Position numbers and translations under genes: made by a program. From the NCBI GenBank assembly GCA_035403785.1, contig DAONFW010000001.1, forward strand, positions 21,595 through 85,594: a DNA stretch of 64,000 nt, read 5' to 3'. Positions 1 to 47,105 of this stretch are shown here, one piece after another (the stretch's first letter is position 1; each line of letters begins with the position of its first letter). The DNA comes from Minisyncoccota bacterium. GTDB taxonomy: Bacteria; Patescibacteriota; Minisyncoccia; Phycocordibacterales; UBA9973. The notes below the pieces were generated by a model, which ran no database searches, had not been told where the DNA came from, and saw nothing but the letters and a program-made list of their open reading frames with translations.

Positions 1-58
1 TGGGGGGAGCCGGCAAAAAATGGAAAGGAAAATTTTTGGTTTTGGTTCCGACGCTTCA
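1..58. repeat. Left copy (truncated by window edge) of long inverted repeat X1; reverse complement of 4792..4850
   Basis: Read directly from the sequence: 1..58 equals the reverse complement of about 4792..4850 (ggaaccaaaaccaaaaattttcctttccattttttgccggctcccccc). The partner copy continues to 4995, so this copy presumably extends beyond the left window edge. Confidence 0.8.
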
Positions 59-360
59 TTCCTCCAGAAAGGACTTGTATTTATATTTTAGCATTGTGGC
101 GATATTTTGTCCGTCCTTTCCTCCGTCATTCGCGTCGGTGCGAGGCGCTCCCGTATCCGCGTTTTGTGGTAGTTCTATCGTCCTCTCACACTTCACAATC
201 ACCTCACATAGGCCGTTCGCATTCGCTCACGATGCCTGCTCGGTGCTTGCTTCGTGTTCGCTCCGTGACTTCGTTTAAGCCTGTGGTAACTCTAAAAAGC
301 GGATTGTGCTGAGGCACAAGCAAGTTTATATGTGCTTGCCCCACCCGCCCACGTGCGCGC

Positions 361-390
361 ACAGAAAACCACTCGCTAACGCGAGTGGCT
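361..390 (-). terminator. GC hairpin (ccactcgc-taac-gcgagtgg) just downstream of the minus-strand ORF that ends at 400
   Basis: Perfect 8-bp stem with a 4-nt loop. An A-run precedes it on the plus strand, which is a T-run on the minus strand. Confidence 0.4.
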
Positions 391-399
391 CCCTTGTGA

Positions 400-1737
400 T
401 CATTTAATCTTTAAGAACAAATCGGTAATACCTTTGAGTAAATTTTCATCCGGCACTAAATCTTTAAGCTCTTTTGCAAATGACAAGAAACTTTCCGTTT
501 CTTTTTCATTACTAGCATTCAATAATTCTATTTTTTCTTTCTCTTTCTTTACCTTTTTCCAATCAATAGATTTCTCGTAAGGTTCAGTATAAAGTTTCTC
601 AATGGTTTTCCTTATGAAGGTCGTAGTCTCACCGTCTGACCCCTTTTCTTTAATTTTTTGAATTAGGAAATCTGCGTGGTTGCGCATGACTTCGGCTACA
701 GTTGCCTTGAATGAATATTTTTCCTCTAAATCCCGCTCAGTACCATATCGTCTAATTGCAAAAGTAATCAAAAAGAGTAGTGGCGAAGTAAGCGTTAAGC
801 GATAGAACAGAGATTCCCATTTAGGAATTTCACCTCCATTATGCAAAAGAATTTCCTTTACATCAAAAATAAAATAGAGAAGGATAGAAAGAGCAACAAT
901 ACCCAACGAGAAAATCGCTAACCAAATATAGCTATTCCTGCGTAGTAATTTAGCCCTATTTTGAAACGAATTAGCAAAACCCGTGTCTGTAATGAGGTCT
1001 GCTATTTTTTCAACCTCGGATCGTTTTTCTGTCGCGATATCAAGATTCTTTTGTATGTCATCTCGCAGTTGTTCTGATTTTTTCTTATTCCCTTCGATCT
1101 CAGAAAGGTGTTTCTGTGATTGATCACGAAAAGACTGAATTTCTGTAGCAACAGCAGTTGCTTTTTTCTGCAAATCTTGAACTTGCGCAAGAACTGCTCC
1201 CAAGCCGGTATTCTGGTCAGTAATTTTTGCATTAACCGCGACAAATTCATTGTAGGCATTTTGAATTTGTGTGATTTTTTCTTGAACTTGCCCCAGTAAT
1301 TCATTAATTTTCCCTAACTGTTGCGTCGCGGTTGTTTTGGCTGTTTCAATATCTGTTCGCAGGTTATTAGCTGTCAGAACAAGTGACTCTATTTCTCCCT
1401 CTCTACCCTCGATTTTTCCTTTTATGTTTTCAAATTTACGCAAACCTTCATCAATCTGAGTAATACTGGATTGTGCTTTTTCAAGATTGCTTTTTATTTC
1501 TGCAACAAAAGTTGCGGAATCATTCTTTGCGTTCTCAATAGTCCCAAGTCGCTCCCGGGCATCGTTTGAGATTTTTTCGATCTCATTCTGTTTTGGTACA
1601 AGGGTTGCTTGTGTAGCTTCAAATTTAATTTGAAGTGCTGAAATTTTCTCCAAAATATCTTTGGCTTTGTTGTATTGGCTCTTGATGTTCCTTAATTCTT
1701 CAGGACTCAAGTTAAAATTGTCGTTTTCGTCTGGCAT
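400..1737 (-). CDS. Hypothetical coiled-coil protein with two central TM helices (possible 2TM effector or abortive-infection-like protein); island 1 cargo
   Basis: 445-aa ORF. The N-terminal ~270 aa are E/K/Q-rich heptad-like sequence. Two hydrophobic helices follow (IWLAIFSLGIVALSILLYFIF; LTLTSPLLFLITFAI), then a ~120-aa charged tail. No recognisable enzyme motif. The gene is divergent from the LexA-like gene. Confidence 0.6.
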   Translation of the reverse strand: MPDENDNFNLSPEELRNIKSQYNKAKDILEKISALQIKFEATQATLVPKQNEIEKISNDARERLGTIENAKNDSATFVAEIKSNLEKAQSSITQIDEGLRKFENIKGKIEGREGEIESLVLTANNLRTDIETAKTTATQQLGKINELLGQVQEKITQIQNAYNEFVAVNAKITDQNTGLGAVLAQVQDLQKKATAVATEIQSFRDQSQKHLSEIEGNKKKSEQLRDDIQKNLDIATEKRSEVEKIADLITDTGFANSFQNRAKLLRRNSYIWLAIFSLGIVALSILLYFIFDVKEILLHNGGEIPKWESLFYRLTLTSPLLFLITFAIRRYGTERDLEEKYSFKATVAEVMRNHADFLIQKIKEKGSDGETTTFIRKTIEKLYTEPYEKSIDWKKVKKEKEKIELLNASNEKETESFLSFAKELKDLVPDENLLKGITDLFLKIK

Positions 1738-1749
1738 AAATTAATTGTG

Positions 1750-1792
1750 GATAACCGGGGACTTGTTTAGGTTATCTTTAGGTATTATAATC
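1750..1792 (+). promoter_or_regulatory. Palindromic operator candidate GATAACC-N13-GGTTATC overlapping a -10-like TATTATAAT in the divergent promoter region
   Basis: Seen in sequence: gataaccggggacttgtttaggttatc, then tattataat 6 bp before the ATG at 1798. It lies between the divergent 400..1737 and lexA-like genes. Confidence 0.45.
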
Positions 1793-1797
1793 TAACT

Positions 1798-2424
1798 ATG
1801 AAAAAGAAGTCAAGCGTTGGAATAGGTAAACCGACAAAGCGGGAAGCTGAAATCCTACAATTCGCACGAGAGTATCGTCAAGAAAATGGATTCTCCCCCT
1901 CACTGGTTGAGATTGCTAAACATTTTAAGCGTTCCGTGCCCACAATTCATCAACATGTCTATTCTTTGCGAAGCAAGAACCTTCTTTTGATAGATAAGGG
2001 CAAAAAGCGTTCAATCAATGCTTTACATAATCACAGGGTTTCGGAAGTAATGATACCTCTAATGGGAATTATTTCTGCCGGTGGTCCAATTGAGGCCATC
2101 CGCGATCCAAAACCAGTAGAAGTTCCGCGAAGTATGCTTTCCCCCGGACATGACTACTACGCACTAAAGGTTTCCGGGCTGAGCATGATTGAGGAAGGAA
2201 TATCAGATGGAGACGTTGTGATTGTAAGAGATCAACCAACAGTAGATGACGGAGAAAAAGCAGTCGCGTATATGCCAGATAGAAACGAAGTAACGCTCAA
2301 AAAAATATACAGAGAAAAAGGTCGGATAAAACTTGTTCCAGCAAATCAAACCATGAAGCCGTTTTATGAATCAAACGTGGTCATTCAAGGAAAGGTCGTA
2401 GGAGTATTAAGAAAAGAATTTTAA
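1798..2424 (+). CDS. lexA: LexA-like repressor (N-terminal winged HTH plus C-terminal S24 peptidase with an Ala-Gly self-cleavage site)
   Basis: HTH region LVEIAKHFKRSVPTIHQHV. Cleavage-site-like ISAGGP. Ser nucleophile in GLSM and Lys in TLKKI. Length of 208 aa is typical. Confidence 0.75.
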   Translation: MKKKSSVGIGKPTKREAEILQFAREYRQENGFSPSLVEIAKHFKRSVPTIHQHVYSLRSKNLLLIDKGKKRSINALHNHRVSEVMIPLMGIISAGGPIEAIRDPKPVEVPRSMLSPGHDYYALKVSGLSMIEEGISDGDVVIVRDQPTVDDGEKAVAYMPDRNEVTLKKIYREKGRIKLVPANQTMKPFYESNVVIQGKVVGVLRKEF

Positions 2425-2433
2425 AATAAACTT

Positions 2434-4008
2434 ATGTCATTAGTAACAATACACGAAGCATCAAAATGGGCGACGGACTATCTTGAAAAAGAGGTATCGC
2501 CAACAAATATTTCTTACCTTGTTCAATATGGTAAGGTTAAGAAACTTGGAGAAAATGGGTCAACCCTTGTTGATTTGAATGATTTGAAAAAGTATTACGA
2601 ATCATGGAAAGGTAAACGAGAGATTGATTGGAAAAAACAACTTGGTGATGATTTAAACTGGGCGTTGTCTTTTGATAATCTCAGGGAAAAAGATACGACG
2701 AAGCATGTTCATAGATTACATCCATACAAAGGAAAATATATTCCGCAACTTGTTGAATATTTTATTGATTCCCACATTGATGATTTTAAAAAAGAAGTTT
2801 ATTTTAAAACCGGTGATATAGTCCTCGATCCTTTTCTGGGTTCAGGAACAACAATTATTCAATCACTAGAAATGGGTATCCATTCCGTGGGTATTGATGT
2901 GTCTGAGTTTAATTGCATGATTGCGAGTTGCAAGGCAACAAACTATGATCACGACTATTTGCAGAAAGCAATTAAAAAAATGCTCTCCGCAATAGATACT
3001 TTTGAGCATGATAATAGAATCCAAGAATTTGAAACAGAGTTGTTGGCAGAATTGGCAAAGTTTAATAACAAACATTTTCCCGGCTCAGATTTCAAATATA
3101 AAATAAATCAGGGAAATTTTGATGAAAAAAAGTTTTCTTCAGAAAAAGAAAGGGAGTTTTTGCCTACATATCAGAAATTACTCAAAAAATATTCAATAAA
3201 ACTGAAACAAGACAAAACTGAGTCATTTTTAGATACTTGGTTTATGGATAATGTGAGAAAAGAAATTGATCATGTTTTTAACACTATAAAACAAGAGAAG
3301 GATACAAAAACAAAAAAGATTCTCGCTCTAATTTTGAGCCGAACAATTAGATCGTGTCGAGCTACAACACACAGCGATCTTGCTACCCTAAAAGAACCTC
3401 AACTAACAACATATTATTGCTATAAGCACAAAAAGATTTGCAAACCGTTGTTTTCTATAAAAACAATGCTTAATCGTTACGCTTACGATACTGTTTCAAG
3501 GATCAAGGAATTTGAAAGGTTGCGAAAACCAGTTCATTATTCTGCTATTGCTGGTGATTCAAGAGTTGTGGATATTTTTGAAAAAGTTGAAAAGCAAAAC
3601 CCAGAGTTCGCAAAAATTCTTAAAAAACAAAAAATTTCAGGTATTTTCTGCTCGCCTCCATATGTTGGACAGATTGATTATCACGAACAACACGCCTACG
3701 CCTATGACTTGTTAGGATTTAAGAGAAAAGATGATCTAGAAATTGGCCCACTTTACAAAGGACAAGGACAAGAGGCACGCAGATCATACGCACAAGGAAT
3801 AGCCGATGTGCTAAATAACTGTAAGAAATATCTAAAAGATGATTACGATATTTTCCTTGTGGCAAACGATAAATATAATCTTTATCCAGAAATTGCTGAA
3901 AAATCTGGAATGAAGATTGTTAATCAATTTAAAAGACCTGTTTTGAATCGAACAGAACGGGACAGGAATCCATATTCCGAAATAATTTTTCATTTTAAAT
4001 CAATATAA
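2434..4008 (+). CDS. Type II DNA methyltransferase, amino-MTase (N6-adenine or N4-cytosine), alpha-class motif order
   Basis: Motif I DPFLGSGTT at about aa 135. Motif IV SPPY (IFCSPPYVGQIDY) at about aa 410, with a long intervening target-recognition region. Confidence 0.75.
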   Translation: MSLVTIHEASKWATDYLEKEVSPTNISYLVQYGKVKKLGENGSTLVDLNDLKKYYESWKGKREIDWKKQLGDDLNWALSFDNLREKDTTKHVHRLHPYKGKYIPQLVEYFIDSHIDDFKKEVYFKTGDIVLDPFLGSGTTIIQSLEMGIHSVGIDVSEFNCMIASCKATNYDHDYLQKAIKKMLSAIDTFEHDNRIQEFETELLAELAKFNNKHFPGSDFKYKINQGNFDEKKFSSEKEREFLPTYQKLLKKYSIKLKQDKTESFLDTWFMDNVRKEIDHVFNTIKQEKDTKTKKILALILSRTIRSCRATTHSDLATLKEPQLTTYYCYKHKKICKPLFSIKTMLNRYAYDTVSRIKEFERLRKPVHYSAIAGDSRVVDIFEKVEKQNPEFAKILKKQKISGIFCSPPYVGQIDYHEQHAYAYDLLGFKRKDDLEIGPLYKGQGQEARRSYAQGIADVLNNCKKYLKDDYDIFLVANDKYNLYPEIAEKSGMKIVNQFKRPVLNRTERDRNPYSEIIFHFKSI

Positions 4009-4012
4009 TTTT

Positions 4013-4795
4013 ATGGCACTATCAAAAGAACAAGTTAAAAATGTCGAGGATGTACTAAAAGCAAGTCTCAGAAACAAATTCCAAAATTACAAACCGGAAC
4101 CGGCTTCGATGCCATTCCATACTCGTCTTTTGGGTAAGGATAGATTGGCACTTTATTCATTTATCCATTCTCTCAATACTAATTTTGGAACAAGTATTTT
4201 TGAACCGGTCGGCTTAGCTTTGGCGCAAAAGAATTTCAAAATGGCTACATGCCAAGCTACTGCCGGAGATCGTATAAGCACCGGCGCACAAGCAGAAATA
4301 CAAAAAATTATTGATGGACTAACGACGGCAACATCATCACCAAACAAAAAAGAGGAAATTGAACGAATAAGAAAAGTTTGTCAGTCTGGTGAGATGATAA
4401 AAGCAAAACCTACCAAAGTAGATTTAATGTTTGAATCAAAAGACGGCGGTTATTATTTATTTGATATAAAAACAGCAAAACCTAATGCTGGAGGATTTAA
4501 GGAATTTAAACGAACACTACTTGAATGGGTCGCTGTGACTTTGGCGAACAATCCAAAAGCCGATATAAACACATTTATCGCAATTCCATATAATCCTTAC
4601 GAACCAGAGCCTTACACACGATGGACAATGCGTGGAATGCTTGATTTGGATAATGAGCTTAAAGTAGCTGATGAATTTTGGGATTTTCTTGGTGGTAAAG
4701 GCACATACAAAGATTTACTAGATTGTTTTGAACGAGTTGGAATTGAACTTCGTGGCGAAATAGATGACTACTTTAAGCGCTTCAATAAAAAATAA
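4013..4795 (+). CDS. Putative cognate type II restriction endonuclease
   Basis: The start lies 4 bp after the MTase stop on the same strand. There is a possible D..D-x-K catalytic signature (KDGGYYLFDIK). No other homology is recognisable by eye. Confidence 0.45.
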   Translation: MALSKEQVKNVEDVLKASLRNKFQNYKPEPASMPFHTRLLGKDRLALYSFIHSLNTNFGTSIFEPVGLALAQKNFKMATCQATAGDRISTGAQAEIQKIIDGLTTATSSPNKKEEIERIRKVCQSGEMIKAKPTKVDLMFESKDGGYYLFDIKTAKPNAGGFKEFKRTLLEWVAVTLANNPKADINTFIAIPYNPYEPEPYTRWTMRGMLDLDNELKVADEFWDFLGGKGTYKDLLDCFERVGIELRGEIDDYFKRFNKK

Positions 4796-4995
4796 GCGTC
4801 GGAACCAAAACCAAAAATTTTCCTTTCCATTTTTTGCCGGCTCCCCCCACACCCCCCGCCGAAAGAGGAATTGTAAGGAAAATTTTGGTTTTGGGATCGC
4901 GACCGAAGGGAGCGTGCGAGGCGCAAGTATCATTCGTCAAAATCCTGCGGATTTTGTCCGAAATACATTCGAACTTCGTCCAATACACACCGCCA
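4792..4995. repeat. Inverted repeat X1, right copy, ending in the CCGCCA core at 4990..4995
   Basis: 4792..4850 matches the reverse complement of 1..58. The distal 50 bp (ggattttgtccgaaatacattcgaacttcgtccaatacacaccgcca) is conserved with the end of X2 at 36857..36906. Confidence 0.65.
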
Positions 4996-5109
4996 AAATT
5001 GGAAATCGGAATCGGAAGCCGAAATGGGGTCGGCGCGAAGCGCCGACACAAACGCATTCCCGCCAAAAATTCCCGAATCCAAAAGGTTTTTCCACGCTCC
5101 GCGTGGCTC
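4990..5109. repeat. Inverted repeat Y1, copy A (120 bp, GC-rich, with internal hairpins)
   Basis: Appears to be a perfect reverse-complement match to 6512..6631 when read by eye in chunks. It contains the hairpins gtcggcgc-gaa-gcgccgac and ccacgc-tcc-gcgtgg. Confidence 0.85.
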
Positions 5110-5131
5110 TCTCGTTTGCCAATACAATTTT

Positions 5132-6730
5132 ATGAATAATCAAACCAAAAAGTTTTTCATATATACTCGCAAGTCTACGGATGACAAAGACAGACAAGTC
5201 CGCAGTATTGCAGACCAACTTTCTGAATTGAAAGAATTAGCAAGGAAAGAAGATTTAGATGTTGTTGATGTCTTTGTCGAAAAGCAGACCGCCAAAATAC
5301 CAGGTCGCCCAGTGTTTGGTGAGATGTTGGAGCGAATGGAGAAAGGCGAAGCCACTGGTATTTTGGCGTGGCATCCCGATAGACTTGCTCGCAACTCGAT
5401 AGACGGAGGAAAAGTCATCTACCTCGTTGACACCGGTGTCATTTCAGAAATGAAATTCCCAACTTTTTGGTTTGATCCGACACCGCAAGGCAAGTTTATG
5501 CTTTCAATCGCTTTTTCGCAGTCCAAGTATTATGTGGACAATTTGAGCGAAAATATTAAGCGTGGACATAGAAACAAAGTGAAAGAAGGAATATGGCCTC
5601 AAATGTCGCCGCTAGGATATATAAACGAGGGCGGGAAAATTGTCGTTGATGAAAATATCGCACCTTTAATCAAGAAAACATTTGAGGCATATTCGTCTGG
5701 GTCTTTCACTTTGCGACAACTTCGCGACAAATTTAATGAACTTGGATTGAAGCGAAAAAGCGGAAAGGAACTTGCGGTGTCGAATTATCAAAAACTTTTG
5801 AAAAACCCAATTTACACAGGTTTGATGTTGTATAACGGCGAGATACACGAAGGTAAGCACGAACCGATTATTACAAAGAAACTTTTTGATTCCGTTCAAG
5901 AAGTGATGATGAGAAAATCTAAACCGAAGTCGCGAGGATTGAAACCATTTTTGTACAGAGGATTTTTCCGTTGCGGAGAATGTAGTTGCTTCATTACCAC
6001 CGAAACACAGAAGGGTCATAATTATTTGCGATGTACCAAACGGAAAAATCCTTGTTCACAAAAATATACTCGTGAGGAAACCATCACTTCTGAAATTCAA
6101 AAGGAAATCAAAAAAGTTTCTTTGCCAGACGATTGGGCTTCTTGGATGTTAGTGGAAAATAGAAAAGATATATTGAGTGAAGCCCAATTGTCTACGCTTT
6201 TTGCAGACAACACAAAAGCCGATATTTCTCTTTTGGATTCTAAAATTGAGAAGCTGATGAACGCATATTTAGAGAACGCACTTTCGCTAGACGAGTATCG
6301 AGATATGAAAAACAAACTTGTGAACGAAAAACAGCTTCTCAAAGAGAAATTATCGGCTTTTGAGAAAAAAGCGAATAATCGGTTCGAACTTACCGAAAAG
6401 TTTTTGAAATACAATGTGGAATTGGCAAACGAGTGTACAAATGAAGAAAAACTTCATTTGTACAAAAAAGTCGGTTCGAACTTTCAAATTAAGGATCGAA
6501 CCGTACTTTTTGAGCCACGCGGAGCGTGGAAAAACCTTTTGGATTCGGGAATTTTTGGCGGGAATGCGTTTGTGTCGGCGCTTCGCGCCGACCCCATTTC
6601 GGCTTCCGATTCCGATTTCCAATTTTGGCGGAGGCGGAGGGATTCGAACCCTCGATGCCCTTTCAGACATACAGACTTTCCAGGTCTGCGCACTAGACCG
6701 CTATGCGACGCCTCCAAAATTTCTTATTAA
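5132..6730 (+). CDS. Large serine recombinase (resolvase/invertase catalytic domain, recombinase domain and zinc ribbon)
   Basis: The ATG at 5132 aligns with the paralog start MDNINLQTKKIFLYARKSTDE. Catalytic Ser is in YTRKSTDD. The Cys cluster FRCGECSCFITT...LRCTKRKNPC is present. Homology to the paralog ends near aa 465 (GSNFQIKDRTVLFEP). The last ~70 codons are encoded by repeat Y1 copy B and antisense tRNA-Ser, so the functional end is probably earlier than the ORF stop. Confidence 0.85.
   Translation: MNNQTKKFFIYTRKSTDDKDRQVRSIADQLSELKELARKEDLDVVDVFVEKQTAKIPGRPVFGEMLERMEKGEATGILAWHPDRLARNSIDGGKVIYLVDTGVISEMKFPTFWFDPTPQGKFMLSIAFSQSKYYVDNLSENIKRGHRNKVKEGIWPQMSPLGYINEGGKIVVDENIAPLIKKTFEAYSSGSFTLRQLRDKFNELGLKRKSGKELAVSNYQKLLKNPIYTGLMLYNGEIHEGKHEPIITKKLFDSVQEVMMRKSKPKSRGLKPFLYRGFFRCGECSCFITTETQKGHNYLRCTKRKNPCSQKYTREETITSEIQKEIKKVSLPDDWASWMLVENRKDILSEAQLSTLFADNTKADISLLDSKIEKLMNAYLENALSLDEYRDMKNKLVNEKQLLKEKLSAFEKKANNRFELTEKFLKYNVELANECTNEEKLHLYKKVGSNFQIKDRTVLFEPRGAWKNLLDSGIFGGNAFVSALRADPISASDSDFQFWRRRRDSNPRCPFRHTDFPGLRTRPLCDASKISY
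6512..6631. repeat. Inverted repeat Y1, copy B, overlapping the recombinase 3' end and abutting the tRNA-Ser 3' end
   Basis: Reverse complement of 4990..5109. Its last 6 nt (tggcgg) are the terminal CCGCCA of the tRNA. Confidence 0.85.
6626..6715 (-). tRNA. tRNA-Ser (anticodon GGA), class II with a long variable arm
   Basis: Reverse complement reads GGAGGCG-TC-GCAT...; anticodon stem-loop CAGAC-CTGGAAA-GTCTG; T arm GAGGGTTCGAATCCCTC; acceptor CGCCTCC-G-CCA. Length 90 nt. Confidence 0.85.
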
Positions 6731-34267: not shown

Positions 34268-34462
34268 ATCTGGCGGTGTTTTTTGGACGAAGTTCGAACG
34301 TTTTTTGACGAAAATCCTGAAAACTAATTTGGACTCGGCGGGGCAAACTATTTTTCTGGGGGAATGGAATTGCCCCGCCTCGGCTTTCTTCCCGCCCGCA
34401 GGAGGGGTCTGGGGAGGAATGCGGGCGGGTTTTTGAACCTTTCCTTTTTCGCTTCCGAATTT
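34268..34462. repeat. Inverted repeat X2, left copy (about 195 bp, GC-rich), starting with a tggcgg core
   Basis: Perfect reverse complement of 36712..36906 read by eye. The sequence at 34463..34480 differs from its partner, but each version is itself an 18-bp palindrome. Confidence 0.85.
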
Positions 34463-34493
34463 CGTGCCAGTTGAAAACTGGCGCGCCACCTAT

Positions 34494-35477
34494 TTAACTA
34501 TTTTTTAAATCACTCATTATTTTTTTTGCCAAGTGATGAGCAAAATTTACTGCAACAGCATTTCCAATCATTTTATAACCGTCAGCAATATCACGATATT
34601 TGAAAATAAAATCATCGGGAAATGTTTGTATTCTTGCACACTCACGAACAGACAAACGGCGGTATAATTGTTCTTTTCCGGGAACAAAAATTCTTTTATT
34701 TTGTTCAATAAATTTCATTTTTGGTGCTTGTGGGTGAATTGGTGCGTGGCGACCACCAGCTTGAATTGTGAAAGAAGGCTCGTCCCAAGAACGGACACGA
34801 TTTCGCGACATATAAATCGTTGAGAAACCGCCATTCATATATTCATGGTTTGGAATTTTCAACTCGTCGCCGTTTGTCTTGTTTTTATCTTTAGCTGGTT
34901 TTGCTAAACGCAAATCAAAAATAGCGTCTTTCAAAACAGGTTTATATTTTTGTGGTTCTGGAAATTCAAATTTCTTTTTTAATTTTTTATGATAACCAAC
35001 AATAATAACGCGAAGCCTATCCTCTGGAACATCATAATCATTTGCGTTTAGAAGTTTGCAAGAAATTACATATCCGGCATTTTCAAATTCCTTGATTATA
35101 TTTGAAAATGCCTCTTTGTGTTTTGGGTGTAAAATCCCCGATACATTTTCTGCAAGAAAAAATTTTGGCTGTTTTTCTTTCAATAAACGAATGTAGTCAT
35201 AAAATAATTGACCTCGCTTGTCGTTTATTCCACGCCCAGCACCAGCCTCACTCCAACTTTGGCAAGGAGGTCCGCCAATAATTCCGTCAACATCGGGGAT
35301 TTCAGACGCTGGAACATCAACAATACTTCTCTTGTCTAATTTTGTTTTTGGAAAATTATACTCAAATGTTTCCCAAATTGTCGGGTCGTATTCATTCGCC
35401 CAAACGACATGAAAACCAGCTCTTTCAAAGCCTAAATCTAACCCACCCGCACCTGTAAATAAAGAAGCTAATTTCAT
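34494..35477 (-). CDS. dcm: DNA (cytosine-5)-methyltransferase
   Basis: Motif I LFTGAGGLDLGF. Motif IV GGPPCQSWS. Motif VI ENV. Motif X GNAVAVN. Confidence 0.9.
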   Translation of the reverse strand: MKLASLFTGAGGLDLGFERAGFHVVWANEYDPTIWETFEYNFPKTKLDKRSIVDVPASEIPDVDGIIGGPPCQSWSEAGAGRGINDKRGQLFYDYIRLLKEKQPKFFLAENVSGILHPKHKEAFSNIIKEFENAGYVISCKLLNANDYDVPEDRLRVIIVGYHKKLKKKFEFPEPQKYKPVLKDAIFDLRLAKPAKDKNKTNGDELKIPNHEYMNGGFSTIYMSRNRVRSWDEPSFTIQAGGRHAPIHPQAPKMKFIEQNKRIFVPGKEQLYRRLSVRECARIQTFPDDFIFKYRDIADGYKMIGNAVAVNFAHHLAKKIMSDLKNS

Positions 35478-35478
35478 A

Positions 35479-36327
35479 TTATTTTCTAAAACTCAATAAT
35501 TTCGCCTCAAGCAATTTTGCTGGATTATTTGGCGATTTTATTTTTATATCTTTAATTAAAAAGTTATCACTAACTAAACTTTCAAGATGTTTTCTGTCTT
35601 TTTCTGGAAAAGACAAATATTTTTCTTTCAGCAAAATTGCATTAACAAAAAATTCAGAATTTTGCTCTGCCGGAACAACATAATCAAAAACTTTTATAGG
35701 ATTTTCAATTCCCCACATTCCACGAATACGCAAATATGTTATTCCAAGAGGATCAACGCGATTTACTCTGCCGAGTTCGTTTGTTTCCGAAAATTCAACA
35801 TCTTGTAATTCATTAACACCTTTTGAAATTTTATCTCTTATTCTTTCGTAAACTTCTTTATTTGCGGAATAACAATTACCATAAACAAGCCACAAGGCTT
35901 TTAGCTTGTCATCTTTTGAAACTCCAACAACATAAACTAAATCTTTTTCCCGCCAATCCTCACAATTTTTGCAAGCAGTGGTTATCATCGGACTATCAGA
36001 AAATAGTTTGTCTTTAGGATACGAACTATTAAGTGCAATTCCCGAACGCAAACTTTCAATTTTCTTAACTTCTATCGCATCACCTTGCTTGATAATAATG
36101 TCTGGCGGATTATTTTGATTTCCAATATAAGAAAAATATTTGCTGTAAATTTCATTTTTCTTTTCAAGATTATTTTCATTTAGGGAATTGCAAAATAAGT
36201 CTTTGATATAAAATTCTAAAGCGTCGCCCATACTGTTTGCTCGGTTGGCAGCACGATAATGAGAAACCAAATTTGTAATTGGATTTTTGACTAAATTTGA
36301 TATTGCGATAAGTAAATTTGTTTCCAT
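35479..36327 (-). CDS. Type II restriction endonuclease (PD-(D/E)xK fold), cognate of the m5C MTase
   Basis: PPDIIIKQGDAIEVKK fits PD-x10-ExK. It is 1 bp upstream of dcm on the same strand. Confidence 0.55.
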   Translation of the reverse strand: METNLLIAISNLVKNPITNLVSHYRAANRANSMGDALEFYIKDLFCNSLNENNLEKKNEIYSKYFSYIGNQNNPPDIIIKQGDAIEVKKIESLRSGIALNSSYPKDKLFSDSPMITTACKNCEDWREKDLVYVVGVSKDDKLKALWLVYGNCYSANKEVYERIRDKISKGVNELQDVEFSETNELGRVNRVDPLGITYLRIRGMWGIENPIKVFDYVVPAEQNSEFFVNAILLKEKYLSFPEKDRKHLESLVSDNFLIKDIKIKSPNNPAKLLEAKLLSFRK

Positions 36328-36331
36328 AGTT

Positions 36332-36526
36332 TTATTTTATTAAATCCTCAATCGGCACATTAAGTGCCTTCGCGATTTTTTTAATTGTATCAATAGTTGG
36401 ATTTTGTTGTTTGCCTGCCTCGATATTGATTATCGTATTATTGGAAACATCAGCAAGACGGGCTAGTTTTTCTTGCGACAAACCCATTTTTTCTCTTATT
36501 CGTTTGATTTTGCTTGACTCTACCAT
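36332..36526 (-). CDS. Controller (C) protein, XRE-family HTH
   Basis: 64-aa HTH (LSQEKLARLADVSNNTIINIEAGK). It lies immediately upstream of the REase gene. Confidence 0.7.
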   Translation of the reverse strand: MVESSKIKRIREKMGLSQEKLARLADVSNNTIINIEAGKQQNPTIDTIKKIAKALNVPIEDLIK

Positions 36527-36556
36527 ATTAAAATAGTAATATTAAATTGTGGTATA

Positions 36557-36600
36557 ATAATTATATGCTTCAACAAAATAACCACAATATAATATTACCA
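36557..36600 (-). promoter_or_regulatory. Candidate C-box operator palindrome (TTGTGGT ... ACCACAA) upstream of the C-protein gene
   Basis: Seen in sequence: attgtggtataataattatatgcttcaacaaaataaccacaat. Confidence 0.4.
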
Positions 36601-36711
36601 AAATATTTCGACTTCGTAAAGAAAAAAGGGAGTTCCTTAGCGTTGCCCGCGAATGGGTTGGGTGGGTCAAGGGCAACATCTCTTTTGGTGGCGCATTTTG
36701 CTTTGCAAAAT

Positions 36712-36906
36712 ACGAAATTCGGAAGCGAAAAAGGAAAGGTTCAAAAACCCGCCCGCATTCCTCCCCAGACCCCTCCTGCGGGCGGGAAGAAAGCCGAGGC
36801 GGGGCAATTCCATTCCCCCAGAAAAATAGTTTGCCCCGCCGAGTCCAAATTAGTTTTCAGGATTTTCGTCAAAAAACGTTCGAACTTCGTCCAAAAAACA
36901 CCGCCA
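36712..36906. repeat. Inverted repeat X2, right copy, ending in the CCGCCA core (36901..36906)
   Basis: Reverse complement of 34268..34462. Confidence 0.85.
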
Positions 36907-37034
36907 AGTTTTACATTCAGCGAAATTGAAAGATGTTGCCTCGGCGCAAAGCGCCTCGGCATGGTATTTTTCCGCAATTTTGAAGGCATTTTTGAAATCC
37001 AAAACCAAAGTGCGGTCGGCAATGCGGAAGTTCG
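36901..37034. repeat. Inverted repeat Y2, copy A (about 133 bp)
   Basis: Perfect reverse complement of 38518..38650 read by eye. It contains the ggcgc-aaa-gcgcc hairpin. Confidence 0.85.
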
Positions 37035-37148
37035 CCGTGCAAAGCACGGGCAAAATGAAATTTTGCAAACCAATCTTTTTTCTTTCGCTTTCGGCGAAAG
37101 GTTGAGCGTATTTTTCTTTGATTGCCCAAAAACTAATTTCAAAACAAT

Positions 37149-38702
37149 ATGGACAACATAAATTTACAAACCAAAAAGATTTTTCTCTATGCCCGTAAAT
37201 CCACGGACGAACCCGAAAGGCAGGTTTTGAGTATTGAGGCGCAAATGTTTGAATTGCGGGAATTTGCGAAAAAAGAAGGACTAAATATCGTCCGTGAATT
37301 TGTGGAAAGCAAAACCGCCAAAGAGCCGGGGCGTGAGATTTTTAACGAAATGATCACAAGCATAGAGAAAAATGAAGCAGAGGGAATTTTAGCGTGGCAC
37401 CCCGACCGCCTCGCTCGAAATAGCATAGACGGCGGACGAATAATCTATTTCGTAGATACTGGCAAAATTACCACGCTAAAATTTCCAACTTTTTGGTTTG
37501 ATCCGACACCGCAGGGAAAATTTATGTTGAGTATCGCTTTTGGGCAATCAAAATATTATGTGGATAATCTTTCGGAAAATATAAAGAGGGGTATTCGCCA
37601 GAAATTGCGAAATGGAATATGGCCCGCTTGGGCGCCACTTGGGTATGTGAACGACAAGAACGCCCGCTGTATTGCCGTGGACAAGGAAAAGGCAAAGTAT
37701 ATCAAGCGGGCTTTTGAAATGTACGCGACTGGCGAATACCCCCTCGCTCAAATCCGAAAGATTATCAATTCCTTGGGCTTGGTTGGCAAGAAAGGCAAAA
37801 TGCTTTCCGTCTCAAATTATCAGTATATGCTGAAAAATAAAATCTATTACGGAATGATTGAATATAACGGCGAATTGTATGACGGAAAGCACGAACCGAT
37901 TATCACAAAGAGACTTTTTGATTTATGCCAAGAAGTGATGATGAATAAGTCAAAACCGAAAACACCAAAACTCAAGCCATACATTTTTAGAGGATTTTTC
38001 CGTTGTGGGGAGTGCGGTTGTTTCATTACCACCGAAACGCAAAAAGGTCATAACTATTTGCGATGTACGAAACGGAAAAATCCTTGTTCGCAAAGGTATG
38101 TAAGAGAGGACGCCATCACTTCTCAAATTAAAGAGGAAATCAAAAAAGTTTCTTTGTCTTCCGCTTGGGCAAACGCTTCAATCAATTATTTTGAAAATGA
38201 AAAAATGAAACTTGCCCAAGCGGAAAGCTCTTTCGCCCAAGAAGCGAGAAATGAGCTTGTAGAGATAGAAACAAAACTTGATCGTTTGCTTGATTTACAA
38301 CTGGACGGCAGTTTGTCGCAAGCAGAATATACCGCTAAAAAGCACAAGCTCATTCTCGCCAAAAAGGATTTGGAAGAAAAAATCACTGCTTTTGGGCGAA
38401 AGAGCAATAATCGGTTCGAACTTACCATTGCCTTTCTAAAAGACGCCAACCAAGCCGAAAAATACGCTCAACAAGAAAATCCCGAAAGGATTCGGGATTT
38501 TCTCAAAAAGATTGGTTCGAACTTCCGCATTGCCGACCGCACTTTGGTTTTGGATTTCAAAAATGCCTTCAAAATTGCGGAAAAATACCATGCCGAGGCG
38601 CTTTGCGCCGAGGCAACATCTTTCAATTTCGCTGAATGTAAAACTTGGCGGAGACGGCGGGATTCGAACCCGCGATGGGTTTTGAAGCCCATGCCTCTTT
38701 AG
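37149..38702 (+). CDS. Large serine recombinase (paralog of 5132..6730)
   Basis: YARKSTDEPERQ catalytic motif. Zinc ribbon FRCGECGCFITT...LRCTKRKNPCSQ. The C-terminal tail is encoded by repeat Y2 copy B and then antisense tRNA-Ser, giving WRRRRDSNPR as in the paralog. Confidence 0.85.
   Translation: MDNINLQTKKIFLYARKSTDEPERQVLSIEAQMFELREFAKKEGLNIVREFVESKTAKEPGREIFNEMITSIEKNEAEGILAWHPDRLARNSIDGGRIIYFVDTGKITTLKFPTFWFDPTPQGKFMLSIAFGQSKYYVDNLSENIKRGIRQKLRNGIWPAWAPLGYVNDKNARCIAVDKEKAKYIKRAFEMYATGEYPLAQIRKIINSLGLVGKKGKMLSVSNYQYMLKNKIYYGMIEYNGELYDGKHEPIITKRLFDLCQEVMMNKSKPKTPKLKPYIFRGFFRCGECGCFITTETQKGHNYLRCTKRKNPCSQRYVREDAITSQIKEEIKKVSLSSAWANASINYFENEKMKLAQAESSFAQEARNELVEIETKLDRLLDLQLDGSLSQAEYTAKKHKLILAKKDLEEKITAFGRKSNNRFELTIAFLKDANQAEKYAQQENPERIRDFLKKIGSNFRIADRTLVLDFKNAFKIAEKYHAEALCAEATSFNFAECKTWRRRRDSNPRWVLKPMPL
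38518..38650. repeat. Inverted repeat Y2, copy B, abutting the tRNA-Ser 3' end
   Basis: Reverse complement of 36901..37034. Confidence 0.85.
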
Positions 38703-38737
38703 CAAAGAGGTACGTTAGACCACTCTGACACGTCTCC
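38646..38737 (-). tRNA. tRNA-Ser (anticodon GCU), class II
   Basis: Reverse complement reads GGAGACG...; anticodon loop CCTCT-TTGCTAA-AGAGG; long variable arm; GGTTCGAATCC T-loop; CCA is encoded. Confidence 0.85.
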
Positions 38738-38809: not shown

Positions 38810-38898
38810 GGAGGCGTGGATGAGTGGTTTAAATCAACGGTTTACTAAACCGTCGTACCCTAACCGGTACCGTGAGTTCGAATCTCACCGCCTCCGCA
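38810..38898 (+). tRNA. Class II (Ser-type) tRNA with apparent anticodon ACU (unusual A34); possible tRNA-Ser variant or pseudo-tRNA
   Basis: Acceptor GGAGGCG/CGCCTCC. D-stem GAT/ATC with GG in the loop. Anticodon arm ACGGT-TTACTAA-ACCGT. Variable arm GTACC-CTAACC-GGTAC. T arm GTGAG-TTCGAAT-CTCAC. The 3' CCA is not fully encoded (GCAG). Confidence 0.6.
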
Positions 38899-46680: not shown

Positions 46681-46712
46681 GATAATTTTATGAAAGTTAT
46701 TATATCAAATTC

Positions 46713-47105
46713 TGTGGAGATGGGGGAAATCGAATCCCCGTGCAGAAGGTTACTGAAATGAAATCTACATACTTAGTTTGTTTTTTTGTTTAAACCTAAA
46801 AACTAATAAGCAAACAAAATGTTTTTAGATCGATCCTCTTTGTTTCGGAAAAGACCCGAGGCTTGTCTTCCCTATCCCGAAAATATTATGCCCCAAACTT
46901 ATATATCGGAAGTCTATAAGCGAGACACCAGCCCTCTTAAGCGAAAGCTGGAGCAAAAGCGAAGTCCTTCATACCGAAGTATGGAGAAACTGAATCTTTT
47001 ACTTTAGAAGCTAATTTTGCAATTAGTTTTTTGAATAAGTTAACGAGATTATTCAGCTCGGTATGCATCAAGACAAACAGCCAACTGTCTATGCCTTGCA
47101 TCCCC
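46713..47105 (-). ncRNA. ssrA: tmRNA (ssrA) adjacent to smpB
   Basis: The reverse complement begins GGGGATGCAAGGCAT. It ends with a T-arm-like GGGGATTCGATTTCCCC and acceptor CATCTCCA with a G3-U70 pair. An internal reading frame ...MKDFAFAPAFA-TAA resembles Mollicutes-type proteolysis tags. The region is otherwise noncoding. Confidence 0.75.

Follow-up and report, generated by a model that had tools for sequence, protein, structure and literature searches.

Paired stem-loops at the cassette/arm junctions of a serine-recombinase mobile element of Patescibacteria

The cassette and its two inner-edge hairpins

The window analyzed here is a 64,000-nucleotide (nt) stretch of contig DAONFW010000001.1 in assembly GCA_035403785.1 (Minisyncoccota bacterium), and all positions are given within it. 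It contains a widespread, apparently undescribed serine-recombinase mobile element of Patescibacteria (candidate phyla radiation, CPR), and the subject of this analysis is a pair of small hairpins, hpA and hpB, in that element (Table 1). Read from a tRNA-Ser gene, the element consists of repeat b, a recombinase gene facing the tRNA, the inverted copy b', arm a', hpB, a conserved 8-mer, a leader, a helix-turn-helix (HTH) gene reading into the cargo, the 8-mer again, hpA, arm a, and the flank. In this layout a module made up of GGTGGCGC, a hairpin, and AC stands where the cargo cassette meets each of the long inverted arms of a large-serine-recombinase mobile element.

Table 1. Features of the element and positions in the window
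Feature	Positions	Strand	Remarks
Left arm a	34271..34465	-	195 nt; outward strand ends ...GTTCGAACTTCGTCCAAAAAACACCGCCA at 34271; 95-100% identical across loci
CGAAATTCGG, left copy	34455..34464	-	
Shared A, left copy	34465	-	
hpA	34466..34482	-	GCCAGTTTTCAACTGGC; outward reading GCCAGTT-TTC-AACTGGC; 11 nt past the stop codon of the last cargo gene (methyltransferase); lineage found at the cargo-distal end of all related elements
8-mer GGTGGCGC, left	34483..34490	-	inner (cassette) side of hpA; cargo diverges immediately inside it
C5 cytosine DNA methyltransferase	34494..35477	-	cargo, last cassette gene; PF00145, E = 7e-98
NgoPII-family restriction endonuclease	35479..36327	-	cargo; PF09521, E = 7e-119
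HTH gene, Xre/Cro-type	36332..36526	-	64 aa; first cassette gene
Candidate outward promoter	36514..36542	+	TTGACT-17-TAATAT; -35 overlaps HTH start codon; consensus match only
Leader block	36627..36686	+	60 nt; conserved between HTH promoter region and 8-mer; occurs with several unrelated HTH leaders
8-mer GGTGGCGC, right	36687..36694	+	inner side of hpB; conserved
hpB	36695..36711	+	ATTTTGCTTTGCAAAAT; outward reading ATTTTGC-TTT-GCAAAAT; HTH-leader end; always linked to HTH leader
Shared A, right copy	36712	+	
CGAAATTCGG, right copy	from 36713	+	
Right arm a	36712..36906	+	inverted copy; outer end CACCGCCA (36899-36906) abuts repeat b
Repeat b, left copy	36901..37034		134 nt, inverted, 100% identical to right copy
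b-stub	36907..37034	+	inverted copy of last ~128 nt of recombinase gene; conserved in at least 11 related loci
h1	37035..37049	+	CCGTGC-AAA-GCACGG; inner edge of b-stub, upstream of recombinase gene
h2	37050..37066	+	GCAAAAT-GAA-ATTTTGC; inner edge of b-stub, upstream of recombinase gene
Large serine recombinase	37149..38702	+	Resolvase PF00239 (7e-20), Recombinase PF07508 (3e-16), Zn_ribbon_recom PF13408 (2e-9)
Repeat b, right copy	38518..38651		134 nt
tRNA-Ser(GCT)	38646..38737	-	3' end ...TCCGCCA, putative attB half-site; junction with b at 38645/38646

The two arms form a 195-nt inverted repeat that is identical from the hairpin out to CACCGCCA. At its inner edge the repeat is broken by 17 unrelated bases and then resumes for the 8 bases of GGTGGCGC; the 18th base (A) is common to both copies. 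Both 17-mers are perfect hairpins in which two 7-nt halves of a 7-bp stem enclose a 3-nt loop, and the two are identical at only 2 of the 17 positions, both within the loop. The earlier note on this DNA had described the inner-edge copies as unrelated in sequence and each a perfect hairpin, and this was borne out, as alignment showed 15 of 17 positions to differ where identical copies would have pointed to a misreading. The conserved blocks that it had seen on both sides, the 8-mer and CGAAATTCGG, were also present in both copies, the 8-mer being conserved across loci as well. Its statement that the copies are of equal length stood, while its length of 18 bp has to be corrected to 17 nt plus the shared A, and its position for the right copy (36689..36706) was 6 nt too low.

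A perfect 7-bp stem is expected in a random 17-mer of the window's composition with p ~1e-4, and two at homologous positions with p ~1e-8 by simple arithmetic. Two copies of the flanking pattern are present in the window, compared to none in 100 shuffles. A repeat search returned the inverted repeat as 201 nt at 99%, with its two mismatches in the flanks outside the element (GATTTT vs AGTTTT). The left 8-mer and the first bases of hpA together make up a 10-bp palindrome, TGGCGCGCCA.

Neither hairpin resembles the native intrinsic terminators of this genome, which consist of an A-tract, a GC stem, and a U-tract. Both hpA and hpB are followed by ACGAAATTCGG with no U-tract, a terminator scan called neither of them, and a role as classical terminators was rejected. 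Arm a itself holds two GC-rich hairpins, the second of which shows a compensatory change across loci. One of the two has a U-tract on the inward reading (CCCGCCCGCA at 34391-34400, TGCGGGCGGG at 34420-34429, and TTTTT at 34430-34434); it is the sole arm hairpin followed by a U-tract and has the same form as the native terminators. It was absent from the minimum free energy (MFE) folds of the inward strand and is therefore a candidate terminator only. MFE folds of whole arms gave modest z-scores of -2 to -3.4, with unstable long-range pairs. In a search of Rfam only tRNA and tmRNA models passed the thresholds, and nothing with E<1 overlapped the arms or the modules. A 204-codon open reading frame (ORF; 36547-37161) extends from hpB across arm a, b, and h1 to h2. 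A protein-coding arm was rejected, since in related arms the long ORF is broken by indels of +4 and +10 nt or the body is wholly different.

Recurrence across Patescibacteria and conservation of shape

Related elements were collected by scanning species-representative genomes with the 19-mer beside the hairpin, which gave 77 loci, nearly all from Patescibacteria metagenome-assembled genomes (MAGs), and by scanning metagenomes with the outer end of the arm, which gave at least 119 further loci. The two hairpins recurred in about 100 independent related loci from many Patescibacteria, indicating that they are neither a misreading nor a one-off assembly error. An assembly artifact was likewise rejected for the repeat itself, which is shared by about 100 independent assemblies; the caveat remains for single orientation calls. 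The arms were 95-100% identical across many candidate phyla, and an HTH protein of identical sequence was indexed in 220 blocks of a public collection. The related loci repeat the order of features given above for the window, from a tRNA-Ser of any anticodon (once tRNA-Asp) to an unrelated flank, which indicates that both inverted repeats are features of the family rather than accidents of this genome.

Every module recognized in the approximately 100 loci fell into one of two lineages. Lineage A is represented by GCCAGTT-TTC-AACTGGC, with the variants GCCAGT-TTC-ACTGGC, GCCAAT-GAA/GAT-ATTGGC, and GCCGAT-AAA-ATCGGC. Lineage B is represented by ATTTTGC-TTT-GCAAAAT, with a form in which the loop is flipped to AAA, and with ATTTCGC-AAA/GAA-GCGAAAT. 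All 33 complete elements carried one A and one B, with B at the HTH-leader end and A past the last cargo gene. The same hpB was found with at least five unrelated types of HTH leader, and the same hairpins were paired with recombinases that were 53-100% identical. The module was also found with at least four arm bodies, namely a, a3 (309-nt arms, L030), a4 (303-nt arms, L186), and a5 (the L117 group), and in each the 8-mer, hairpin, and AC were kept at the inner edge. Arms of the a2 type, including those of a second element in the window, had no hairpin module.

The shape of the modules was better conserved than their sequence. Across 17 distinct modules, 97.4% of the cells were paired, compared to 61.8% in shuffles and less than 40% when the partner was slid. 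All seven stem pairs showed changes on both sides, and pairing was kept in GCCAAT/ATTGGC, GCCGAT/ATCGGC, GCCAGT/ACTGGC, ATTTCGC/GCGAAAT, and the loop-flipped hpB. In other words, an 8-mer that appears to be under sequence constraint lies beside a hairpin for which the constraint appears to be purely structural. Comparison with related elements, which the earlier note had suggested, thus returned the same two hairpin lineages in about 100 loci, and its view of a stem-loop module rather than random drift agrees with the compensatory changes that keep the geometry. The terms "swapped" and "allelic" that it used were not supported, since the hairpins are old, fixed, and specific to one end of the element.

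Across loci, the cargo sequence diverged exactly at the 8-mer. Cassettes ranged from 1.3 kb, the smallest, to 6.3 kb, and carried restriction-modification (R-M) genes alone, R-M with a TIR gene (ThsB-like), R-M with PycTM, R-M with an AAA ATPase, or ABC-transporter genes without R-M. The element therefore looks like a shuttle that carries mainly defense genes. In individual cargo regions, the same arms and HTH gene carried a ThsB-like TIR with 8xMP (L031/L035), PycTM (L029/L034), an AAA_15/AAA_21 ATPase (L030), or ABC-transporter genes (L032/L077). No empty arm-hairpin-hairpin-arm site was seen among the loci, and cassette arrays were limited to a single tandem module among the 96 loci with modules. 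In this case two extra small genes are enclosed by direct repeats made up of the 8-mer, hpA, and 21 nt of arm (L093, 760-1480). Inversion or exchange at the 8-mers was rejected, as hpB was never found away from the leader. Viral contigs scanned with GGTGGCGC-N10-30-CGAAATTCGG gave 28 matches, all of them chance matches in GC-rich DNA, and blastn against a plasmid collection gave none.

Near-identical arms also turned up in MAGs labeled Gammaproteobacteria, Bdellovibrionales, Pacearchaeota, Nanoarchaeota, Altiarchaeales, and others (L045, L053, L057, L060, L072, L080, L099, and others). Either CPR contigs were binned into these MAGs as contaminants, or the elements have been transferred very broadly.

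Leader, recombinase gene, and tRNA junctions

The leader block contains a 7-bp stem, GTTGCCC (36642-36648) and GGGCAAC (36671-36677), around a G-tract loop (GGGTTGGGTGGGTCAAGGG). The stem covaries (GTTGTGT/ACACAAC), and in one leader type the block is present or absent as an indel. The four G-tracts of GGGTTGGGTGGGTCAAGGG also make up a G-quadruplex-like motif on the outward strand, and the indel separates otherwise identical leaders. An outward sigma-70-like match to TTGAC[ATC]-N16-18-TAnnnT was found in 40 of 51 distinct leaders (mean 1.6 and maximum 5 in shuffles). This candidate promoter lies 70-150 nt ahead of the 8-mer and, in the window, is the nearest promoter-like site on the + strand upstream of the recombinase start. 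An 18-nt inverted repeat (36536-36553 and 36581-36598, GTAATATTAAATTGTGGT and ACCACAATATAATATTAC, 27 nt apart) lies over the promoter of the HTH gene. It covers two promoter-like sites that face each other, TTGTGG-N17-TATAAT for the HTH gene and TGGTATAAT reading outward, and this pair resembles face-to-face switch promoters. The closest solved relatives of the HTH protein are generic Xre proteins such as CylR2, and C.BclI is a weaker match.

Repeat b encloses the recombinase gene. Its right copy is the 3' end of that gene, with the last ~45 codons lying within the repeat (38518-38645), and abuts the 3' end of tRNA-Ser(GCT); the ORF continues into the tRNA gene. Because there is no stop codon before the crossover, the C-terminal tail of the recombinase would be encoded by whatever sequence crosses the junction: the tail reads ...ECKTWR|RRRDSNPRWVLKPMPL from the tRNA (38640-38702) and ...ECKTWR|CFLDEVRTFFDENPEN from the arm at the stub (36850-36912).

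The hairpins beside the b-stub also vary. Stem h1 covaries (CAGAGC/GCTCTG and CTGTGC/GCACAG), while h2 was swapped wholesale in one locus (L069) for an unrelated 7-3-7 hairpin, GTCCCGC-TCA-GCGGGAC, which is the same phenomenon as seen in hpA and hpB. A third small hairpin, CTTTC-GGC-GAAAG (~37094-37106), was likewise replaced in L036 and L069, and variation of small hairpins near the b-stub was seen in L069, L049, L030, and L036. The stem halves of hpB and h2 are the same in swapped order, and long-range pairing between the two was rejected because h2 changes in L069 and L049 while hpB stays unchanged.

The hexamer TGGCGG/CCGCCA, which is the CCA end of the tRNA, occurs at three junctions: flank to arm (34271), arm to b (36906), and b' to tRNA (38646). 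The first and last of these, flank|TGGCGG-arm (34270/34271) and b'-AAAACT|TGGCGG-tRNA (38645/38646), share this core in direct orientation, and from their sequence they look like the attL and attR of a serine-integrase element. The sequence ...TCCGCCA|A(G/T)TTT... recurs at ten of 11 related tRNA junctions; the exception (L060) has no b. The T-loop motif TTCGAAC, assigned by eye, lies 11 nt past TGGCGG in the tRNA and 16 nt past it in the arm. In serine integrases the zinc-ribbon motif sits 5 bp further from the center in attP than in attB half-sites (PMC3783163), and the 5-bp shift of TTCGAAC between arm and tRNA, as judged by eye, thus matches attP versus attB half-site geometry. In other loci the distal junctions diverge right past CACCGC, and the arm-b junction has dyad symmetry around TTG-GC-GGT. 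Together these indicate that the crossover dinucleotide is probably a self-complementary GC.

Since the recombinase gene and the cassette each lie in their own inverted repeat, an intact attP-like junction (36906/36907) would stay inside the integrated element. An excised circle, which would carry the junction arm CACCGC|CAAGTTTT b, would hold two inverted arm-b junctions, in other words two attP-like sites, and two integrated isomers are therefore predicted. In the common isomer the recombinase gene or b lies next to the hpB arm (21 arms, and 4 derivatives from which the recombinase gene was deleted). None of the 41 hpA arms that could be scored with enough flank adjoined b or the recombinase gene. 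The minority isomer was represented by hpA beside the recombinase gene in L053, where the flank was too short for the 41-arm count, and in L088, which has a divergent b. It was also represented by hpB beside the flank in L037/L238, which share the MarR flank of the window. Both orientations relative to flank or recombinase were thus seen (the window and L033 versus L037/L238; L053 and L088), with about 80-90% of arms in one state. A single orientation call may be the path choice of an assembler, because the exact 195-nt repeat exceeds short-read k-mers, and two contigs (L236 and L237) end exactly at the arm/hairpin edge. In a programmed invertible segment (Hin/Gin-type or inverton), a dedicated invertase would act at short sites in the repeats; here a flip would leave the cargo unswitched, since the promoter itself lies between the repeats. 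No empty MarR|tRNA-Ser site was found in contigs that have this MarR gene.

Several loci showed other rearrangements. In L029 (9816-9860), which has no recombinase gene, b is joined to the leader block at a common 10-mer, AGATGTTGCC. In L038 (3530-3580), also without a recombinase gene, b-like sequence is joined to mid-arm at GCCTCGGC. Two further loci beside tRNA-Ser that lack the recombinase gene (L078 and L189) retain only a ~20-nt palindrome (ATTTTCAC...GTGAAAAT) of two b copies between tRNA and arm. The site upstream of the same MarR gene is a variable hot spot, occupied in other samples by a different restriction enzyme gene (RE_R_Pab1), by a SET-domain gene, or by an element that has a3-type arms and the same junction point, CACCGCCA|GATTTTTT (L239, 42-803; L240, 284-646; L241).

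A second, more distant member of the family lies at 1-6715 of the window. It has a cassette of four ORFs (57-4793), arms at 1-56 (cut by the window start) and 4794-4995, and a recombinase gene (~5133-6630) in a 120-nt perfect inverted repeat (4990-5109 and 6512-6631) that abuts tRNA-Ser(GGA) at 6626-6715. Only the outer ~30 nt of its arms are in common with arm a, and there is no 8-mer/hairpin module. ARAGORN predicted another serine tRNA gene, which forms a divergent pair with tRNA-Ser(GCT), at 38810-38897 (+) and in L059 at 3494-3583. Its anticodon is ACT, and A34 is unusual for a serine tRNA of bacteria. A tmRNA gene at 46712-47105 (-; Rfam, 122.9 bits) is consistent with a bacterial chromosome.

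Possible roles of the hairpins and comparison with known systems

The preferred reading, which is tentative and to which we assign a probability of about 0.45, is that the two 17-mers are stem-loops selected for their structure at the cassette/arm junctions, with a role in RNA stability, processing, or control of read-through. Arm bodies are identical within an element yet different between sub-families, which indicates that something homogenizes the arms; copying or recombination between the two 195-nt bodies of an element may keep them identical. Beyond the hairpin there are only 8 nt of homology, so each hairpin would lie outside this homogenization and evolve alone. If the constraint on the hairpins is a stem of 6-7 bp with a triloop and no particular sequence, the two ends could have diverged wholly over time, while the 8-mer, under sequence constraint, would have stayed alike. 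Both modules are probably transcribed outward. Directly past the last stop codon, hpA would be the first structure in the 3' untranslated region of the cargo operon. Since the sole arm hairpin with a U-tract reads inward, an outward transcript in the common isomer would pass hpB, the arm, the b-stub, h1, and h2 and then enter the recombinase gene. As RNA structures, or as transiently single-stranded DNA structures, the hairpins would mark the boundary between cassette and arm rather than serve as operators. The strong bias of hpB to the recombinase side fits a functional link.

Several points weigh against this. Neither hairpin has a U-tract, and no concrete RNA role can be named. Only the inward strand lengthens the module stem to 10 bp, by means of a U.G pair, which is a poor fit to an outward RNA, and a count of G.U versus C.A pairs on the oriented strand had too few variants to indicate the functional strand. 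The outward promoter is a consensus match only, and the leaders in which it was counted are not phylogenetically independent. The covariation signal comes largely from one source, the old split between A and B. The module catalog was filtered to at most one stem mismatch, yet every a-family arm that was anchored independently of the hairpin did contain a hairpin. Symmetric changes in a palindrome could equally reflect a dimeric DNA-binding protein, and the strict rule of one A and one B, with a precise cargo boundary at the 8-mer, fits a DNA junction site equally well. Finally, concerted evolution of whole arm bodies would require a copying mechanism.

The strongest alternative, although a rather unlikely one, is such a DNA-level site, in which GGTGGCGC and the hairpin would serve as a site, dependent on structure, for recombination or for defining the ends of the cassette, whose polarity would come from the hairpin identities. 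The exact divergence of cargo at the 8-mer argues for this, as does the constancy of the module while both the cargo inside it and the arm body outside it were exchanged. So does the tandem duplication in L093. The 8-mer contains TGGCG, as does the putative crossover core TGGCGG. Triloops of GAA or AAA closed by C-G are unusually stable as DNA mini-hairpins, and such loops occur here (GCGAAGC in h1 variants). Were the DNA unfolded as a single strand, its arms, both hairpins, and the 8-bp stem would come together in a four-way junction. However, no enzyme for such a reaction is encoded, and the sole recombinase is of the large serine type, which uses duplex sites of 40-50 bp. The constant placement of hpB and hpA in 33 of 33 complete elements leaves no inversion or exchange at the 8-mer visible, the tandem case is the only one among 96 loci, and an empty site between arms was not seen. 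The core motifs of attC (RYYYAAC and GTTRRRY) and the length of attC are also absent. An extended version, which we hold to be improbable, is that the modules are sites read by structure that define and orient exchangeable cassettes in a new class of Patescibacterial serine-recombinase elements, in other words an integron-like system built on a serine recombinase. The design would have two modules, and each of them would lie between identical half-sites with a self-complementary GC crossover at their center. A palindromic crossover cannot supply polarity, which would come instead from the identities of the two hairpins.

The hairpins might also have no function and be mutational by-products at the edge of a long repeat, for example from template switching in replication that perfects short palindromes, carried along by descent. 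The loop-flipped hpB (TTT to AAA) and the wholesale replacement of h2 in L069 do look like one-step template switches, and arms of the a2 type, including those of the second element in the window, work without a module. Against this, the module outlasts the exchange of arm body, cargo, and leader, and the 8-mer is kept in sequence and position on both sides. Stems are also perfect or nearly so in almost all copies, with repeated independent compensatory changes, and the chance that the hairpins are simply functionless appears small.

Palindromic operators are the least probable of the readings weighed. Under this reading a dimeric protein would bind each 17-mer as duplex DNA, with different proteins recruited to the two ends; the candidates are the C/HTH protein, the recombinase, or, more probably, a host-encoded factor. 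A perfect 17-bp palindrome with a free 3-bp center is of typical operator size, the outermost 3-4 bp are conserved in each lineage (GCC.../...GGC and ATTT.../...AAAT), and an Xre-type HTH protein is encoded beside hpB. However, the hairpins do not covary with HTH type or recombinase type, their stems of 7 or 6 bp would shift the half-site spacing, and the HTH gene has its own 18-bp inverted repeat (36536-36553 and 36581-36598) over its promoter. Binding by the C protein, as the HTH product had been called when a protein-binding site was first proposed, is also argued against by position: hpB lies past the promoter, some ~160 nt upstream from where the HTH gene starts, and hpA is at the opposite end of the operon. 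At least five unrelated leader types share one hpB, and an identical HTH protein heads cassettes without R-M genes (L032). Recombinase binding, proposed at the same time, fares no better, as recombinases only 53-60% identical share the hairpins, and these lie 195 nt from the putative crossover core, outside an att site of 40-50 bp.

Patescibacteria have tiny genomes, and their mobile elements have been little characterized. The family described here is very widespread and carries defense genes (R-M, TIR, PycTM, and ATPases), and its hairpin modules provide a precise, searchable signature of cassette boundaries. The 8-mer beside the hairpin is a natural experiment in sequence versus structural constraint. 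A role of the modules in recombination would reveal a new way of exchanging cargo, and a role in RNA would point to a switch that links a Cro-like regulator to recombinase expression. A recombinase with a tRNA-Ser CCA-end target and an apparently symmetric core may also interest those who mine serine integrases for genome-engineering tools.

In the literature searched, as judged by titles and abstracts, there was no description of this Patescibacterial family, the double inverted-repeat design, or the hairpin junction modules, and the full text of one Patescibacteria paper mentions neither recombinases nor inverted repeats. Among known systems, intrinsic terminators resemble hpA in being a stem-loop right past the last stop codon, and differ in having a U-tract. 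The C-box operators of type II R-M systems are comparable in that a small Xre-type HTH gene lies directly upstream of the R and M genes with palindromic DNA nearby. In contrast to C-boxes, the hairpins lie off the promoter (hpB beyond it), show no covariation with HTH type, persist with unrelated HTH types and without R-M genes, the identical HTH protein included, and are conserved in structure and not in sequence. Integron attC sites share with hpA a position 3' to variable cargo, a variable sequence with a conserved fold, and, in L093, one tandem module. The hairpins here are 15-17 nt rather than 57-141 nt, in a module of 8 plus 15-17 nt that lacks R''/R' core sites and motifs. There is a second, different hairpin at the 5' end, there are no arrays, and no IntI tyrosine recombinase was found in the annotated loci.

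The inverted terminal repeats of parvoviruses such as adeno-associated virus have internal B-B' and C-C' palindromes. The arms described here are similar in having two different triloop hairpins (loops AAA, TTT, and GAA) at the inner end of a long palindrome, and the loop-flipped hpB is reminiscent of flip and flop. They differ in that the hairpins are separated by a cassette of 1.3-6.3 kb in a bacterial chromosome, and neither a Rep/HUH nickase nor a single-stranded replication stage is known here.

R-M complexes between long inverted repeats, and units of R-M with an integrase at tRNA genes, have already been described (Furuta, Abe & Kobayashi 2010, PMC2853133). Those cases have imperfect repeats of 26-65 bp with 8-bp target duplications, or direct repeats at tRNA genes. 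The present element is like them in carrying a type II R-M system between long inverted repeats, near a recombinase and a tRNA gene. It is unlike them in that its repeats are part of the carrier rather than of the R-M system, as the same arms carry Thoeris-like TIR, PycTM, ATPase, and ABC-transporter genes.

Transfer RNA targets are typical of tyrosine integrases, whereas the target of the present serine recombinase is the CCA end of tRNA-Ser. The closest likeness in recombinase domains is to large-serine-recombinase integrative elements, such as those of the A118, Bxb1, and phiC31 integrases and islands of the SCCmec and Tn4451 types, which also have a short shared core (here TGGCGG at 34271-34276 and 38646-38651) and defense-type cargo. 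The att sites of serine integrases are 40-50 bp (PMC3783163). In contrast to those elements, the recombinase gene and the cassette here each lie within their own long inverted repeat (134 and ~220 bp), with a putative self-complementary GC crossover and with hairpin modules at the junctions.

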